In this document: piece by piece, positions 9,158 through 60,009 of the stretch
How positions within the stretch are numbered: position 1 is the first letter of the stretch
Layout of the letters: each line of letters starts with the position of its first letter
Assembly (NCBI RefSeq): GCF_024298765.1
Contig: NZ_CP101210.1
Length of the DNA stretch: 64,000 nt
Direction: 5' to 3' (one strand)
Origin: Escherichia coli
GTDB taxonomy: Bacteria > Pseudomonadota > Gammaproteobacteria > Enterobacterales > Enterobacteriaceae
Notes under the pieces: model-generated
Told to the model about the DNA's origin: nothing
The model's database searches: none
What the model saw: the letters and a program-made list of their open reading frames with translations, nothing else
Made by a program: the position numbers and the translations under genes

Positions 9158-9654
9158 TTTTTATTTCTCTTTCAGGTGAATAGATCGTTTTTACTATCTT
9201 ACCCCGCACGAATCATCGTTAAAATCAGATTATAGTGTAGGAATAATTCGCTTTTTACGAGGCATTGAAAGATTTGCGTCATCAGTGATGATATGAGTTT
9301 TTGACGGCTGTAAGCGCTGACGTGTGACCCTAAGCCCTGATAATCATAGCTTAAGGTAAGGATTTCTGAGGGATTAATTGGGAAAAGTAATAATTAATTT
9401 GTTGTCAGTCGGCGATGTTTGTTAGGCCAATACTTCAAAAATAATCCAGTTTGTCGTCAATAATTGCGATGAAGAGATAAATTAAAGTTAAATAATTAAA
9501 TCATTAAAAAATTACGCCATAAAAATGCGAGGCGTCTTCAGGATTAGAATCGATAAAACAGAATGGGTTAAAGAGAGCGATATAATAGCGGCGGGTGCTT
9601 GAGGCTGTCTGTCTCAGGCATTAGCTGAACGGCAGATAGAGAAAAGCCCCGAGT

Positions 9655-9720
9655 GATATTTTACTATCAACCCGAGGCCCCCTATATGCAGAACACATGT
9701 AGAGTGCCTCTTACTGACCG
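9655..9720 (-). ncRNA. sokC: putative Sok-type antisense RNA (sokC) overlapping the mokC start region
   Basis: Inferred only from the architecture of hok/sok loci; promoter and ends not located in the sequence. Confidence 0.25.
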
Positions 9721-9895
9721 TAAGGTCAAGGAGAAGAGAGCAATGAAGCAGCATAAGGCGATGATTGTCGCCCTGATCGTCATCTGTATCACCGCCGTAG
9801 TAGCGGCGCTGGTAACGAGAAAAGACCTCTGTGAGGTTCACATCCGAACTGGCCAGACGGAGGTTGCTGTTTTCACGGCTTACGAATCCGAGTAA
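9686..9895 (+). CDS. mokC: Mok-type regulatory reading frame overlapping hokC
   Basis: In-frame extension upstream of hokC reading MQNTCRVPLTDRKVKEKRAMKQHKAM... Confidence 0.55.
   Translation: MQNTCRVPLTDRKVKEKRAMKQHKAMIVALIVICITAVVAALVTRKDLCEVHIRTGQTEVAVFTAYESE
9743..9895 (+). CDS. hokC: Hok/Gef-family type I toxin (small membrane peptide)
   Basis: 50 aa MKQHKAMIVALIVICITAVVAALVTRKDLCEVHIRTGQTEVAVFTAYESE, canonical Hok family sequence. Confidence 0.8.
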   Translation: MKQHKAMIVALIVICITAVVAALVTRKDLCEVHIRTGQTEVAVFTAYESE

Positions 9896-36398: not shown

Positions 36399-38066
36399 GT
36401 GGCTCAATTCGTTTATACCATGCATCGTGTCGGCAAAGTTGTTCCGCCGAAACGTCATATTTTGAAAAACATCTCTCTGAGTTTCTTCCCTGGGGCAAAA
36501 ATTGGTGTCCTGGGTCTGAACGGCGCGGGTAAGTCCACCCTGCTGCGCATTATGGCGGGCATTGATAAAGACATCGAAGGCGAAGCGCGTCCGCAACCGG
36601 ATATCAAGATTGGTTATCTGCCGCAGGAACCGCAGCTGAACCCGGAACACACCGTGCGTGAGTCCATTGAAGAAGCGGTTTCTGAAGTGGTTAACGCCCT
36701 GAAACGCCTAGATGAAGTGTATGCGCTGTACGCCGATCCGGATGCCGATTTTGACAAGCTGGCCGCTGAACAAGGCCGTCTGGAAGAGATCATTCAGGCT
36801 CACGACGGTCACAACCTGAACGTTCAGCTGGAGCGTGCGGCGGATGCGCTGCGTCTGCCGGACTGGGACGCGAAAATCGCTAACCTCTCCGGTGGTGAGC
36901 GTCGTCGCGTGGCGTTGTGCCGCCTGCTGCTGGAAAAACCAGACATGCTGCTGCTCGACGAACCGACGAACCACCTGGATGCCGAATCCGTGGCGTGGCT
37001 GGAACGCTTCCTGCACGACTTCGAAGGCACCGTTGTGGCGATTACCCACGACCGTTACTTCCTCGATAACGTGGCGGGCTGGATCCTCGAACTGGACCGT
37101 GGTGAAGGTATTCCGTGGGAAGGTAACTACTCCTCCTGGCTGGAGCAGAAAGATCAACGTCTGGCGCAGGAAGCTTCACAAGAAGCTGCGCGTCGTAAGT
37201 CGATTGAGAAAGAGCTGGAGTGGGTACGTCAGGGGACTAAAGGCCGTCAGTCGAAAGGTAAAGCACGTCTGGCGCGTTTTGAAGAGCTGAACAGCACCGA
37301 ATATCAGAAACGTAACGAAACCAACGAACTGTTTATTCCACCGGGACCGCGTCTTGGCGATAAAGTGCTGGAAGTCAACAACCTGCGTAAATCCTATGGC
37401 GATCGTCTGCTGATTGATGACCTGAGCTTCTCGATCCCGAAAGGAGCGATCGTCGGGATCATCGGTCCGAACGGTGCGGGTAAATCGACCCTGTTCCGTA
37501 TGATCTCCGGTCAGGAACAGCCGGACAGCGGCACCATCACTTTAGGTGAAACGGTGAAACTGGCATCGGTTGATCAGTTCCGTGACTCAATGGATAACAG
37601 CAAAACCGTTTGGGAAGAAGTTTCCGGCGGGCTGGATATCATGAAGATCGGCAACACCGAGATGCCAAGCCGTGCCTACGTTGGCCGCTTTAACTTTAAA
37701 GGGGTTGATCAGGGTAAACGCGTTGGTGAACTCTCCGGCGGTGAGCGCGGTCGTCTGCATCTGGCGAAGCTGCTGCAAGTTGGCGGCAACATGCTGCTGC
37801 TCGACGAACCGACCAACGACCTGGATATCGAAACCCTGCGTGCGCTGGAAAACGCCCTGCTGGAGTTCCCGGGCTGCGCGATGGTTATCTCGCACGACCG
37901 TTGGTTCCTCGACCGTATCGCCACGCACATCCTGGACTACCAGGATGAAGGTAAAGTTGAGTTCTTCGAAGGTAACTTTACCGAGTACGAAGAGTACAAG
38001 AAACGCACGCTGGGCGCAGACGCGCTGGAGCCGAAGCGTATCAAGTACAAGCGTATTGCGAAGTAA
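36399..38066 (+). CDS. ettA: energy-dependent translational throttle ABC-F ATPase EttA (YjjK)
   Basis: 555 aa MAQFVYTMHRVGKVVPPKRHILKNISLSFFPGAKIGVLGLNGAGKSTLLRIMAG..., two ABC cassettes. Confidence 0.96.
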   Translation: MAQFVYTMHRVGKVVPPKRHILKNISLSFFPGAKIGVLGLNGAGKSTLLRIMAGIDKDIEGEARPQPDIKIGYLPQEPQLNPEHTVRESIEEAVSEVVNALKRLDEVYALYADPDADFDKLAAEQGRLEEIIQAHDGHNLNVQLERAADALRLPDWDAKIANLSGGERRRVALCRLLLEKPDMLLLDEPTNHLDAESVAWLERFLHDFEGTVVAITHDRYFLDNVAGWILELDRGEGIPWEGNYSSWLEQKDQRLAQEASQEAARRKSIEKELEWVRQGTKGRQSKGKARLARFEELNSTEYQKRNETNELFIPPGPRLGDKVLEVNNLRKSYGDRLLIDDLSFSIPKGAIVGIIGPNGAGKSTLFRMISGQEQPDSGTITLGETVKLASVDQFRDSMDNSKTVWEEVSGGLDIMKIGNTEMPSRAYVGRFNFKGVDQGKRVGELSGGERGRLHLAKLLQVGGNMLLLDEPTNDLDIETLRALENALLEFPGCAMVISHDRWFLDRIATHILDYQDEGKVEFFEGNFTEYEEYKKRTLGADALEPKRIKYKRIAK

Positions 38067-38076
38067 TGCGTAAAAT

Positions 38077-38108
38077 GCCGGATGCGGCGCGCCAGCATCG
38101 CATCCGGT
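38077..38108. terminator. hairpin terminator downstream of ettA (REP-like)
   Basis: gccggatgcggcgcgccagcatcgcatccggt inverted repeat 11 nt after the ettA stop. Confidence 0.45.
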
Positions 38109-38121
38109 ATTAGTTAAATGA

Positions 38122-38406
38122 TTAATGGGAGGCAAGTTCCCGGAAAAAGGCAGGATTTTCTTTAATTGTGGCAAGTACTTTTGCAGCCAATCCCGTAGGA
38201 TTTCTTCGCTTCGATTCCCAGCTTTTAATGGTATCCACACTGGTTCCCAGAGCTTTTGCCATCTCACTTTGCGAAACGTTGAGTTGCTCACGAATAGCTT
38301 TAACATCCGCAATTTCGTAGCGGGTCACCCGTGCAGGTTCTTTTAAACCTTGTTTAATCTCGACAGCCTCTTCCAGAGAGGTTTTCAACTCATCAAAAAA
38401 ACTCAT
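38122..38406 (-). CDS. HigA-2-like antitoxin with C-terminal XRE-type HTH
   Basis: 94 aa MSFFDELKTSLEEAVEIKQGL...IREQLNVSQSEMAKALGTSVDTIKSWESKRRNPTGLAAKVLATI; XRE-type HTH with the W-E-x-x-R-R-x-P turn seen in HigA/MqsA-type antitoxins; start 1 nt after the toxin stop. Confidence 0.75.
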   Translation of the reverse strand: MSFFDELKTSLEEAVEIKQGLKEPARVTRYEIADVKAIREQLNVSQSEMAKALGTSVDTIKSWESKRRNPTGLAAKVLATIKENPAFFRELASH

Positions 38407-38407
38407 T

Positions 38408-38740
38408 TTATATCTCGCCTTTGAGCAGTTTCGTCAACTTCTTTAGTTGAGCTTTTTCCGTATCTGTCAGACTATCTTTGGCATTTTTCGGATAGGCCAT
38501 AATCAAATAAATAATCTCTTCCGTCGCCAGAAAGTAAATTATTCTGACACTGCCACTTTTTCCCTGTGAACCCGCAACCATTCGGACTTTACGCAATCCA
38601 CCAGTCTGCTGAATGAGATCACCTTTATCGGGAGTTCCGATGAGTTCTTTTTGCAATTCCTTTAATTCATCATCGGTTGCAATCTGCTTGATCTGACGCG
38701 TAAACATTGGCGTCTCTATAAATATTATCGCCTTACCCAT
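38408..38740 (-). CDS. HigB-2-like toxin (RelE/ParE superfamily)
   Basis: ORF 38408..38818; likely start MGKAIIFIETPMFTRQIK preceded by GGGAGGGG RBS (110 aa); conserved core LIQQTGGLRKVR...GSVRIIYF...IIYLIMAYPKNAKDSLTDTEKAQLKKL resembles Vibrio cholerae HigB-2 as recalled from memory. Confidence 0.75.
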   Translation of the reverse strand: MGKAIIFIETPMFTRQIKQIATDDELKELQKELIGTPDKGDLIQQTGGLRKVRMVAGSQGKSGSVRIIYFLATEEIIYLIMAYPKNAKDSLTDTEKAQLKKLTKLLKGEI

Positions 38741-38757
38741 TACCCCTCCCTGGCAGG

Positions 38758-38768
38758 TACATTGTACA
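38758..38768. promoter_or_regulatory. GTACA-N-TGTAC inverted repeat upstream of the toxin gene; candidate operator
   Basis: Palindrome gtacattgtac about 20 nt upstream of the toxin ATG, with a further GTACA copy near 38786. Confidence 0.35.
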
Positions 38769-38831
38769 CCAAAATGGAGTGCTAAGTACACTTTTGAATC
38801 AGTAATCCCACTCAACATCTTATAAAGATGA

Positions 38832-40064
38832 TTATCTTTGCTCCCCCATCATCTCCCGCACCAGCTCTACGCAGCGCAGGAAACGGCTGTCATAATCGTC
38901 TTCTTCAACCCGCACAAATTCGATATTGTTCTCTTCCAGCATCTCCACCAGCAAGTTCTGGAACTCTTTGCGATCCACCGAACTGCCGAGGCTGCGTAAA
39001 CCATCCGCCACCCAAGGGGTGTTGTTCTCCAGCAAGATAACCAGATCAAAACGGTATTCATCGATCAGCGCCTGCACGAACGGATGCTCCCGCCCTTCGT
39101 ACTTTTTGCAGAACGCCTGGGTAGTGACAAAATCAGTGTCGATAAACGCCACTTTATTGGCATATTTCACTGCAAAATCAATGTATTGTGCGTGTCCCAG
39201 CGCGATTTTATCGTAGTCGGAATACTGCAATGCGATCTCATCACCGCCGAGGTGTGAAAAGACATAATCGCGACCATATTCCCACGCACTGGTGGTATTG
39301 AAGATATTGGCAAGTTTGTTTACCAGGGTGGATTTACCGCTCGACTCGCCGCCAAGGATCGCCACGGTACGCACAAAAAACGGCTTCACTTCAGTGGGGA
39401 TATATTCCCAGTAGCGGAACGGGTTTTCGCGGATCTGCGCACCGCTGATACTCATAAAGGTGCGTTTCGGATCGACCAGCACCGTTTCGATCCCCAGATG
39501 TTCCATATACTGTGGCGCATCGGCTTCTTCCGAGGTGTAGATCAGGTCCGGCTGGATCCCCTTTTCAGCCATAAACTTTTTGATGCCGTTGCTCCACACA
39601 TCCCAGCCGTGCGGATACGGCTCCATGCCCTCTTCGTTGAAGGCATGAATACGGATATTTTTCTGATATTTAAAGGTTTGCAATAACCAGCGCAGACGAT
39701 CCGGCACGGTGGGCTGCTGCGACATGGCGCTGTCTTCAAACAACGCGCGGTCGCGGGTATCGTCAAAGCCCATAATGATATGCAGCTCGTCAACCTGGCT
39801 ACAGGCGCGCTGGATAAGGTAGATATGTCCGGTATGTAGCGGGTAGAACTTACCGAATACGACACCAATGGTTTTCTTTTGGCGGGGAAATTCAAGCCCC
39901 AAAAAACGGTGCAACGCCTCCAGCTTTTGCGCGCTGGGGCTTTTAATTTTGGCATTCAGTAACTGGCTTAAATACCCTTTGGTCATACCGCTGGCATCAG
40001 CTACCTGCTGTAGCGTGCAGCCCTGTTGCTTGATGGCAGTTTTCAGGTAATCAAATGACGACAT
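38832..40064 (-). CDS. nadR: bifunctional NMN adenylyltransferase / ribosylnicotinamide kinase / repressor NadR
   Basis: ORF 38832..40085; known start MSSFDYLKTAIKQQGCTLQQVADASGMTKGYLSQLL at an internal ATG; 410 aa. Confidence 0.95.
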   Translation of the reverse strand: MSSFDYLKTAIKQQGCTLQQVADASGMTKGYLSQLLNAKIKSPSAQKLEALHRFLGLEFPRQKKTIGVVFGKFYPLHTGHIYLIQRACSQVDELHIIMGFDDTRDRALFEDSAMSQQPTVPDRLRWLLQTFKYQKNIRIHAFNEEGMEPYPHGWDVWSNGIKKFMAEKGIQPDLIYTSEEADAPQYMEHLGIETVLVDPKRTFMSISGAQIRENPFRYWEYIPTEVKPFFVRTVAILGGESSGKSTLVNKLANIFNTTSAWEYGRDYVFSHLGGDEIALQYSDYDKIALGHAQYIDFAVKYANKVAFIDTDFVTTQAFCKKYEGREHPFVQALIDEYRFDLVILLENNTPWVADGLRSLGSSVDRKEFQNLLVEMLEENNIEFVRVEEDDYDSRFLRCVELVREMMGEQR

Positions 40065-44309: not shown

Positions 44310-44573
44310 ATGATCGATCTGGAAAACCAGGAACGGGAGATTATCAATTTAATGTTCAGCCAGGGTATATCCTGGCTAACCGCCGTGCGTATCAGGCATA
44401 AATTATCGCTTGCTGAAGTAAGTAAAATGTTAGGTATCTCCATTAATTCTCTAAAACAGATCGAAAAGACGGAACGGCTTAGTTCAAACATCAAAAGCAA
44501 AATGGCAGGAATTTATGGTTGTCCACCAGAGTTGCTGATATGCCCTTCCTGGATGACGGCTGAACATAAATGA
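44310..44573 (+). CDS. small HTH (XRE-like) DNA-binding protein, uncharacterised
   Basis: 87 aa MIDLENQEREIINLMFSQGISWLTAVRIRHKLSLAEVSKMLGISINSLKQIEKTERLSS...; AGGAA RBS about 7 nt upstream of the ATG; HTH-like LSLAEVSKMLGISINSLKQIE. Confidence 0.6.
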   Translation: MIDLENQEREIINLMFSQGISWLTAVRIRHKLSLAEVSKMLGISINSLKQIEKTERLSSNIKSKMAGIYGCPPELLICPSWMTAEHK

Positions 44574-51683: not shown

Positions 51684-51900
51684 CCGGATGTGGCCTACGG
51701 ATCGGCACAGACCTGTAGGCATGATAAGACGCGTCAAGCGTCGCATCAGGCATTGTGCGCCAGCTGCCGGATGCGGCGTGAACGCCTTATCCGGCCTACG
51801 GTTCGGCACAGACTTGTAGGCATGATAAGACGCGTCAGCGTCGCATCAGGCATTGTGCGCCAACGGCCGGATGCGGCGTAAACGCCTTGTCCGGCCTACG
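51684..51900. repeat. BIME: three REP copies separated by two copies of a roughly 65-bp spacer unit
   Basis: Repeated gccggatg(c/t)ggc...cctacgg(a/t)tcggcacagac(c/t)tgtaggcatgataagacgcgtca...gcgtcgcatcaggcattgtgcgcca units. Confidence 0.85.
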
Positions 51901-59686: not shown

Positions 59687-59773
59687 GCGAAGGTGGCGGA
59701 ATTGGTAGACGCGCTAGCTTCAGGTGTTAGTGTCCTTACGGACGTGGGGGTTCAAGTCCCCCCCCTCGCACCA
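59687..59773 (+). tRNA. leuQ: tRNA-Leu (anticodon CAG)
   Basis: 87-nt gcgaaggtggcggaattggtagacgcgctagcttcaggtgttagtgtccttacggacgtgggggttcaagtcccccccctcgcacca with CCA end and long variable arm; copy name assigned by operon order. Confidence 0.93.
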
Positions 59774-59801
59774 AAAACCACGTTGATATTGCTCGCACTG
59801 G

Positions 59802-59888
59802 GCGAAGGTGGCGGAATTGGTAGACGCGCTAGCTTCAGGTGTTAGTGTTCTTACGGACGTGGGGGTTCAAGTCCCCCCCCTCGCACCA
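59802..59888 (+). tRNA. leuP: tRNA-Leu (anticodon CAG)
   Basis: Second 87-nt copy; differs from the flanking copies by one base in the variable arm (gtgttc versus gtgtcc). Confidence 0.92.
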
Positions 59889-59922
59889 AACGAGGCAATA
59901 TCAAAAAAAGTAAGATGACTGT

Positions 59923-60009
59923 GCGAAGGTGGCGGAATTGGTAGACGCGCTAGCTTCAGGTGTTAGTGTCCTTACGGACGTGGGGGTTCAAGTCCCCCCC
60001 CTCGCACCA
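59923..60009 (+). tRNA. leuV: tRNA-Leu (anticodon CAG)
   Basis: Third 87-nt copy, identical to the first; coordinates cross-checked against the overlapping spurious ORF 59929..60123. Confidence 0.93.

Follow-up and report, generated by a model that had tools for sequence, protein, structure and literature searches.

A predicted toxin–antitoxin operon of the HigB2/HigA2 kind between nadR and ettA in Escherichia coli

Gene organisation of the nadR–ettA interval

The window analysed here, a 64-kb stretch of E. coli DNA, carries two minus-strand open reading frames between nadR and ettA, at 38408-38740 and 38122-38406, in the arrangement that an earlier note had read from the letters of the sequence. 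The first frame encodes a 110-aa protein of the RelE PF06296/HigB-2 toxin family (RefSeq WP_001317608.1), and the second encodes the 94-aa antitoxin NadS (NCBIfam NF041265; RefSeq WP_000007436.1). The two genes are separated by a single nucleotide, with a junction in the window sequence that reads GAG ATA TAA A ATG. The stop codon of nadR at 38832-38834 leaves a 91-nt spacer ahead of the toxin gene, and on the other side ettA, which converges on nadS, ends at 38066 and leaves a 55-nt spacer between the two stops that contains a REP-like hairpin (38074-38111, an inverted repeat with 13-nt arms that are 92% complementary). The ettA-proximal part of this hairpin aligns with both the K-12 allele and the "empty" allele of the interval, and the hairpin is a probable end or stabiliser of the transcript. 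GC content is 41-42% over the toxin–nadS pair compared with 50-60% in its flanks, and the neighbours of the pair in the window are nadR, radA, ettA and slt.

The longest open reading frame in the toxin frame spans 38408-38818 on the minus strand and would give 136 aa from its first ATG at 38818, whereas the ATG at 38740 gives the 110-aa toxin. We adopt the shorter protein, as the earlier note had done, because RefSeq places the start at the same codon, because homologues with measurable starts begin at the position of the 110-aa reading, and because a conserved box lies inside the 136-aa extension. Direct reading of the minus strand also places the Shine-Dalgarno-like sequence GGGAGGGG at 38743-38750, 2 nt 5' of the ATG at 38740, and the peptide motifs that had been quoted for the two proteins are all present. 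Highly significant family and structure matches, together with about 80 homologous pairs in other species, indicate that both genes are real rather than chance reading frames, and the identical arrangement of 110 aa, 94 aa and a 1-nt gap recurs in 63 of 90 homologous pairs. Plus-strand reading frames across the pair were considered as alternatives and are without support. No Rfam RNA family was found in the 38-39 kb portion of the window.

Family assignment and catalytic residues of the toxin

Residues 13-106 of the toxin match the Pfam RelE family PF06296 (E 3e-9, 37.6 bits), which bears out the suspected similarity to the RelE/ParE/HigB families, and a weak Gp49 match accompanies this assignment. 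Neither of the canonical HigB profiles, PF05015 and PF09907, was matched in the Pfam scan of the toxin, and no toxin-specific NCBIfam model matched; a precomputed PF06296 match is present on almost all of the homologues listed. The only significant matches among solved structures are the Vibrio cholerae HigB-2 chains (PDB 5JA8/5JAA/8A0X; E 2.7e-16, residues 6-102), with which the toxin is identical in 36 of 98 columns (37%). In the HMMER alignment, R53, R66, Y83 and K85 of the toxin align with R51, R64, Y82 and K84 of VcHigB2, the four residues that VcHigB2 needs for activity (Hadži et al., PMC5416850) and of which K84A and Y82A lower that activity 3,000-fold and 1,200-fold, respectively (PMC5416850). 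All four positions are invariant in 11 homologues from eight genera, and the IIYF that follows R66 matches the IIYY of VcHigB2, the repeat that permits strand sliding (PMC5416850). By analogy with this structurally resolved relative, the toxin is predicted to be a ribosome-dependent mRNA endonuclease.

A different activity is implied by the label "ParE-3" that has been given to the NRG857c copy, namely that of a ParE-type gyrase poison. This label follows an assignment to the "ParE_toxin superfamily (cl21503)" in PMC7232551, and the RefSeq name of WP_001317608.1, "type II toxin-antitoxin system RelE/ParE family toxin", spans both possibilities as an umbrella term. We consider a gyrase poison very improbable indeed: the Pfam scan returned PF06296 and the weak Gp49 match with no match to PF05016 (ParE), no ParE structure appeared among the PDB matches of the toxin, where the significant ones were HigB-2 mRNases only, the RelE-type catalytic residues are conserved, and toxins of PF06296 are grouped with those that degrade mRNA in a ribosome-dependent manner (PMC11980606).

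The predicted mRNA endonuclease was also modelled with AlphaFold2 as a toxin-(GGGGS)5-NadS fusion from a paired 26-row alignment, which gave a mean pLDDT of 51 and, unreliably at that value, toxin elements in the order H, H, E, E, E, E, H, H. A RelE-type fold consists of two N-terminal helices, a four-stranded sheet and a C-terminal helix. The alignments behind the models of the fusion and of NadS alone, at about 80% identity, were too shallow, and neither model is usable.

NadS and its relationship to HigA2

NadS matches the NCBIfam model NF041265 ("NadS") across positions 1-94 of 94 with a score of 182.6 bits, the cut-off being 60, and it also matches the YiaG model NF007481 at a score under that model's own cut-off. 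The XRE-type helix-turn-helix that had been recognised by eye in the 94-aa protein is recovered by Pfam HTH_3 (E 6e-10) and is C-terminal, at residues 35-93. Residues 33-91 match HigA-2 (PDB 5JAA/5J9I; E 2.2e-6, 32% identity), and a profile search of the NadS HTH against HigA-2 gives E 1.3e-7. The resemblance to HigB-2/HigA-2 that the earlier note had described, with the toxin gene first, is thus upheld for both proteins, through the structure matches and through PF06296 and HTH_3.

The N-terminal residues 1-32 of NadS are strongly conserved within the family and are presumed to be the toxin-binding part of the protein. No similarity between the NadS N-terminus and HigA2 residues 1-36 was found, either by profile search or by search with an isolated 40-residue peptide, so that toxin binding by this segment is proposed from the architecture shared with HigA2 and not from likeness to its neutralising disordered segment. 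The low-confidence models place a helix at NadS residues 3-18 followed by an extended segment, with a pLDDT of 51 in the fusion and 64 in the AlphaFold2 model of NadS alone.

HigA2 contacts bases through R68, E71, N72 and R77 (PMC11006873), and the counterparts of these residues in NadS are D58, K61, S62 and R67, so that only the last is kept. With three of the four base-contacting residues different, the operator chemistry of HigA2 is not simply transferable to NadS, and the differing residues would fit with recognition of a different operator sequence.

A candidate operator overlapping the putative promoter

Two operator-like boxes lie on the minus strand 5' of the toxin gene. Box 2, GGTGTACAATGTACC at 38756-38770, contains the core GTAC-N3-GTAC at 38757-38767 and overlaps a -10-like TACAAT at 38761-38766, and it is the sole occurrence of GTACNNNGTAC in the 64-kb window. 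Box 1, GTACTTAGCAC at 38779-38789, lies 22 nt 5' of box 2 and is degenerate in the window allele, where a C at 38781 gives GCAC in place of the GTAC formed by the T of five other E. coli alleles.

The proximal box recurs across the family. In a survey of 80 homologous loci drawn from one-genome-per-species contigs, GTAC-N3-GTAC occurred within 100 nt 5' of the toxin gene at 70 loci, at 29-53 nt from the start codon (median 37), compared with three occurrences elsewhere in 396 kb of flanking sequence from the same 80 loci. At ten of the 70 loci another box lies 19-22 nt 5' of the proximal one. The consensus of the box is GGTGTACtATGTACaC, a near-palindrome of the form GGTGTAC-tAT-GTACaC whose centre reads as a -10-like TAnnAT hexamer. 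The footprinted HigA2 operator, TGTACGC-N5-GCGTACA, covers a -10 element (PMC11006873) and has a TGTAC core in common with the NadS-family box. From this correspondence we infer that NadS binds the GTAC-N3-GTAC boxes.

A sigma-70 consensus scan called no site in the nadR–toxin spacer and two sites at chance level, both within the toxin gene; because the scan called none in the spacer, the position of the promoter given here is a putative one. No terminator lies between nadR and the pair, so that read-through from nadR is possible.

Distribution of the module outside E. coli

Across Gammaproteobacteria the module is widely distributed and mobile, with protein identities of roughly 70-84%. The 94-aa partner directly follows the toxin gene on its 3' side in 79 of 80 species loci, and the 80th locus ends at a contig edge. 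The Serratia and Kluyvera copies have an iron ABC transporter on one side and metK on the other, the Salmonella copy lies in a plasmid-like region, and mobilisable (Mob/Rep) plasmids of 5-9 kb as well as an IncN plasmid of E. coli also carry the module. Relatives occur in 885 plasmid records and in a few phage records. Adjacency to nadR was considered as a family trait and rejected: neither nadR nor ettA occurs within 3 kb of any of the 80 other-species loci, so the name NadS reflects the E. coli position only.

The relatives in phage records bear on a further reading, compatible with a toxin–antitoxin pair, in which the main role of the module would be anti-phage abortive infection, with the arrest of host expression by the phage depleting NadS and freeing the RNase. 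Matches of both proteins to PHROGs (phrog_5869, E 3.9e-28; phrog_2104, E 7e-22) point in the same direction, and RelE/ParE-superfamily toxins have been discussed as defence toxins (PMC11980606). We nevertheless judge such a main role improbable, as PADLOC returned no defence-system match, its hits being weak and generic CARF (E 0.008) and HTH models (E 1e-5 or worse), the neighbours of the module (nadR, radA, ettA and slt) place it outside any defence island, and no experimental link to phage defence was found in the literature searched.

The K-12 interval as a deletion derivative

The earlier note had taken nadR and ettA of K-12 to be almost abutting, and had seen in the pair strain-specific content inserted into such an interval. 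The first of these points does not hold, as 307 bp separate the two K-12 genes and contain a scar of the module. Following the nadR stop, this gap holds in order the terminal 27 nt of the toxin gene, nadS codons 1-38 and REP sequence, and the relic is read by PGAP as a 55-aa "NadS family protein" that matches the NadS model with 69 bits at positions 1-46 only. The comparison of intervals that had been suggested thus finds K-12 without an intact pair and with a broken remnant only. Because the 307-bp gap holds the 3' end of the toxin gene and a truncated nadS, we interpret the K-12 state as a deletion derivative of the full module, in which, judging from the aligned sequences, a deletion has removed the promoter together with most of the toxin gene, and the HTH-coding half of nadS has been replaced. 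A recent study reported expression of the K-12 nadS beside nadR and counted its product as a newly detected small protein (PMC12350097).

Five aligned relics have the upstream junction in common. The EC556 relic, which is annotated as frameshifted, retains more of nadS, and this suggests that the toxin deletion came earlier. In an ATCC 25922-type genome, in 06_3288 and in E1624 the relic ATG has become ATA and one T of a T-run has been lost.

About one in eight of the complete E. coli genomes (672 of 5,426) has the intact toxin gene, always as a single chromosomal copy with at least 95% identity. The K-12-type interval is present in 3,764 genomes, and the remainder include an "empty" nadR–ettA interval of 120 bp. 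The pair is therefore accessory, as had been proposed, but the idea of an insertion into a K-12-like site gives way to one in which K-12 is the deletion derivative. On this reading of the alleles, the allele ancestral to the K-12 type had the module in this interval, and most lineages are losing or disabling it.

Divergent toxin alleles beside an invariant antitoxin

Six alleles were compared, those of the window and of five fetched genomes. The NadS protein (WP_000007436.1) is identical in all six, and the five fetched alleles encode five different toxin proteins, none of which is the same as that of the window. The DA61218 allele carries K85I at the catalytic lysine, and the 04-00955 allele carries K85I together with a frameshift. 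In allele counts taken from the identity bands of BLAST searches with short probes, K85I is present in 223 of the 672 carriers, including AIEC LF82 (identical matches to an 80-nt probe around codon 85), and the window-type Lys sequence is present in 281 (identical matches to an 80-nt probe, toxin codons 72-98). The window toxin has valine at position 55, where alanine is nearly invariant in the family and is found in each of the five other E. coli alleles; A55V is a conservative exchange, and the position starts a loop that is disordered in VcHigB2 (PMC5416850).

Invariant antitoxin with eroding toxin is the usual pattern of chromosomal toxin–antitoxin pairs. As judged from these alleles, the toxin is visibly subject to relaxed or negative selection in E. 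coli, and there is real doubt that any given E. coli allele would be toxic; the window allele looks to be among those that are still catalytically competent. These same observations could be accommodated by an attenuated relic, in which both reading frames are intact but the toxin is harmless or poorly expressed and the pair is a neutral passenger heading for loss, in the manner of the relics of most other E. coli. Retention of the toxin gene in only 672 of 5,426 genomes would agree with such a passenger, as would a K-12-type scar in 3,764 genomes that is itself decaying further, the share of carriers with K85I, the frameshift in one sampled allele, the identity of NadS across six alleles while the toxin differs in five, and, in the window allele itself, valine in place of the nearly invariant Ala at position 55 and the mutated operator box 1. 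The window allele, however, keeps all four catalytic residues, the ribosome binding site, box 2 and both reading frames intact, its exchange at position 55 is conservative and falls at the start of the loop disordered in VcHigB2, and the 281 carriers identical to it around codon 85 include the lysine. We weigh the attenuated relic seriously but regard it as unlikely.

A further proposal turns on NadS rather than on the toxin. An "anti-addiction" role is conceivable for chromosomal NadS, which may neutralise plasmid-borne HigB2-type toxins and would thereby let cells lose such plasmids unharmed. HigB2-type toxins on small mobilisable and IncN plasmids of Enterobacterales are 77-80% identical to the chromosomal toxin, and the role, if true, would explain why the antitoxin is invariant and the toxin is decaying. 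It would perhaps extend to the 55-aa K-12 relic, which of NadS retains only the presumed toxin-binding N-terminus and is reported to be expressed. The prospect of an anti-addiction role is, in our estimate, decidedly slim.

A model for the operon

The reading that we favour, and that we consider likely, takes the pair as a type II toxin–antitoxin operon of the HigB2/HigA2 kind, a mobile two-gene unit of which the chromosome has an intact copy here. Under this model the toxin gene and nadS would be co-transcribed from a promoter in the 91-nt nadR–toxin spacer, possibly also by read-through from nadR, and their 1-nt spacing suggests that translation of the two would be coupled. Free toxin would enter the ribosomal A site and cleave translated mRNA by means of R53, R66, Y83 and K85, and growth would stop. 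Neutralisation of the toxin would fall to the N-terminal segment of NadS (residues ~1-32), and a NadS dimer formed through the C-terminal HTH domain would occupy the GTAC-N3-GTAC boxes over the -10 region and thereby autorepress the operon. Were synthesis to stop, the more labile antitoxin would be lost and the toxin would be freed. Cleavage, neutralisation, DNA binding and the lability of the antitoxin are each what we infer from work on the V. cholerae proteins (PMC5416850, PMC11006873).

Significance

The system is already known, as RefSeq annotates both genes, PMC7232551 lists the pair and PMC11980606 describes relE-yiaG modules. With the family structurally and biochemically characterised in V. 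cholerae and the locus described in AIEC and UPEC genomes, the present work carries small weight as a discovery, and its by-products are modestly useful. The additions made here are the K-12 scar with the accompanying reinterpretation of nadS, the operator consensus and the frequency of the K85I allele. What is annotated as "nadS" in K-12 is the shortened remnant of an antitoxin gene that runs on into codons derived from REP sequence, and it should not be taken for a conserved NAD-related small protein. The candidate operator of the family, GTGTAC-N3-GTACAC, is well defined and directly testable. Finally, in one third of carriers, AIEC LF82 among them, the catalytic lysine is replaced, and the presence of the gene in toxin–antitoxin surveys that cover pathogenic E. 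coli therefore does not equate to an active toxin.

Comparison with known systems

The HigB/HigA pair of Proteus vulgaris Rts1 and that of K-12 (ygjN-ygjM) are likewise toxin-first and likewise combine an mRNase of the RelE superfamily with an HTH antitoxin. Their toxins nevertheless belong to other Pfam families (PF05015/PF09907), which the toxin described here does not match, and Proteus HigB is without the C-terminal helix and is neutralised differently (PMC5416850). Relatives on Acinetobacter plasmids (~50% identical) were considered as possible copies of the characterised HigBA-Ab system (PMC5906591), and this identification was rejected because gene sizes and families differ: HigBA-Ab has Gp49-like genes of 357 and 303 bp (PMC5906591), and the Acinetobacter plasmid relative that was inspected has genes of 321 and 273 bp annotated as RelE/ParE and NadS.

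The bicistronic relE-yiaG modules (Gerdes 2025, PMC11980606) have the same layout as the pair in the window, with a PF06296 toxin gene 5' of a YiaG-like antitoxin gene that encodes a HigA2-like HTH. The subfamily highlighted in that study has toxins with long disordered N-terminal extensions, whereas the toxin here is of the minimal 110-aa form. A still more direct correspondence exists with "parE-3/yiaG-2" (TA30) of AIEC NRG857c and UPEC CFT073 (PMC7232551), which is the same locus with the same genes, of 333 and 285 bp. Bustamante & Vidal 2020 placed that pair in the nadR-"attA" interval and gave the K-12 interval as 307 bp (PMC7232551). Their study calls the toxin ParE and regards K-12 as simply without the genes, whereas we assign the toxin to HigB2/PF06296 and find the scar of the module in K-12.

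V. cholerae HigB2/HigA2 (VCA0468/0469) is also toxin-first, and its toxin agrees with the one described here in the four catalytic residues and in the hydrophobic repeat that follows the second Arg. HigA2 and NadS are alike in having an N-terminal extension and a C-terminal XRE HTH. In both systems the operator, in E. coli a candidate one, is an inverted repeat around TGTAC that overlaps a -10 element, here a putative one. The two operators differ in that GTGTAC-N3-GTACAC is often present here in two copies about 21 nt apart, whereas V. cholerae has a single TGTACGC-N5-GCGTACA. The genomic setting differs as well, the E. coli pair occupying an intergenic site of the core genome and V. cholerae HigB2/HigA2 residing in the superintegron.

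Results

In the nadR-ettA interval of K-12 MG1655 (L001), the gene named nadS (55 aa; L001:1624-1791) is a relic of the antitoxin gene, in which antitoxin codons 1-38 are fused to REP-derived codons; this segment of MG1655 matches window 38293-38436 together with REP sequence. Upstream of this relic the nadR-ettA interval still keeps the final 27 nt of the toxin gene, and in several genomes the relic carries ATA as its start codon and has lost a single T. A 2025 paper reports expression of the K-12 nadS product, newly detected there as a small protein associated with nadR (PMC12350097).

Among the E. coli genomes that bear the toxin gene, the catalytic lysine is replaced (K85I) in 223 of 672, including that of AIEC LF82; codon 85, at window 38486-38488, was compared with the alleles L107 and L105, and one K85I allele additionally has a frameshift at toxin codons 6-7. 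The NadS protein, by comparison of the six sampled E. coli alleles, is the same in all. Set against the five other alleles, that of the window has two peculiarities: a T-to-C change at 38781 that breaks the GTAC of candidate operator box 1, upstream of the toxin gene, and a valine at toxin residue 55 (38576-38578) where the family-wide residue is alanine.

An HTH gene of 87 aa in the window (44310-44573, plus strand) is flanked by lplA and deoD, an arrangement that 4,057 of 5,426 E. coli genomes share, while in K-12-type genomes the site is occupied instead by yjjJ, a HipA-family toxin gene; the lplA-deoD site is a second polymorphism that involves a toxin gene and lies 6 kb away from the toxin-nadS pair. 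Elsewhere in the window, an Rfam sok antitoxin RNA match of 118.8 bits (9593-9745, plus strand) marks a predicted hok/sok-type type I toxin-antitoxin locus. Two tandem matches to the REP-derived naRNA4 (51718-51896, minus strand) and three tandem tRNA-Leu(CAG) genes (59687-60009, plus strand) are ordinary features in this region of the E. coli chromosome.

Discussion

The relatives of the pair extend to plasmids. Small mobilisable Mob/Rep plasmids of Enterobacterales (5-9 kb; L008-L012) that carry a homologous toxin-NadS pair also encode a reverse transcriptase (RVT_1, ~380 aa), adjoined on L010-L012 by a 67-aa cold-shock-domain gene; this arrangement resembles an RT module of the retron or defence type. 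Of the 885 plasmid records in which relatives occur, 306 are of Acinetobacter plasmids. Their toxin is ~50% identical and 321 bp long, overlapping a 273-bp 'nadS' by 8 nt (L095:1507-2092, A. pittii pTCM-2), whereas the genes of the characterised A. baumannii HigBA measure 357 and 303 bp. Because of this difference in gene size, the Acinetobacter plasmid pairs seem to form a TA lineage of their own, uncharacterised and separate from A. baumannii HigBA.
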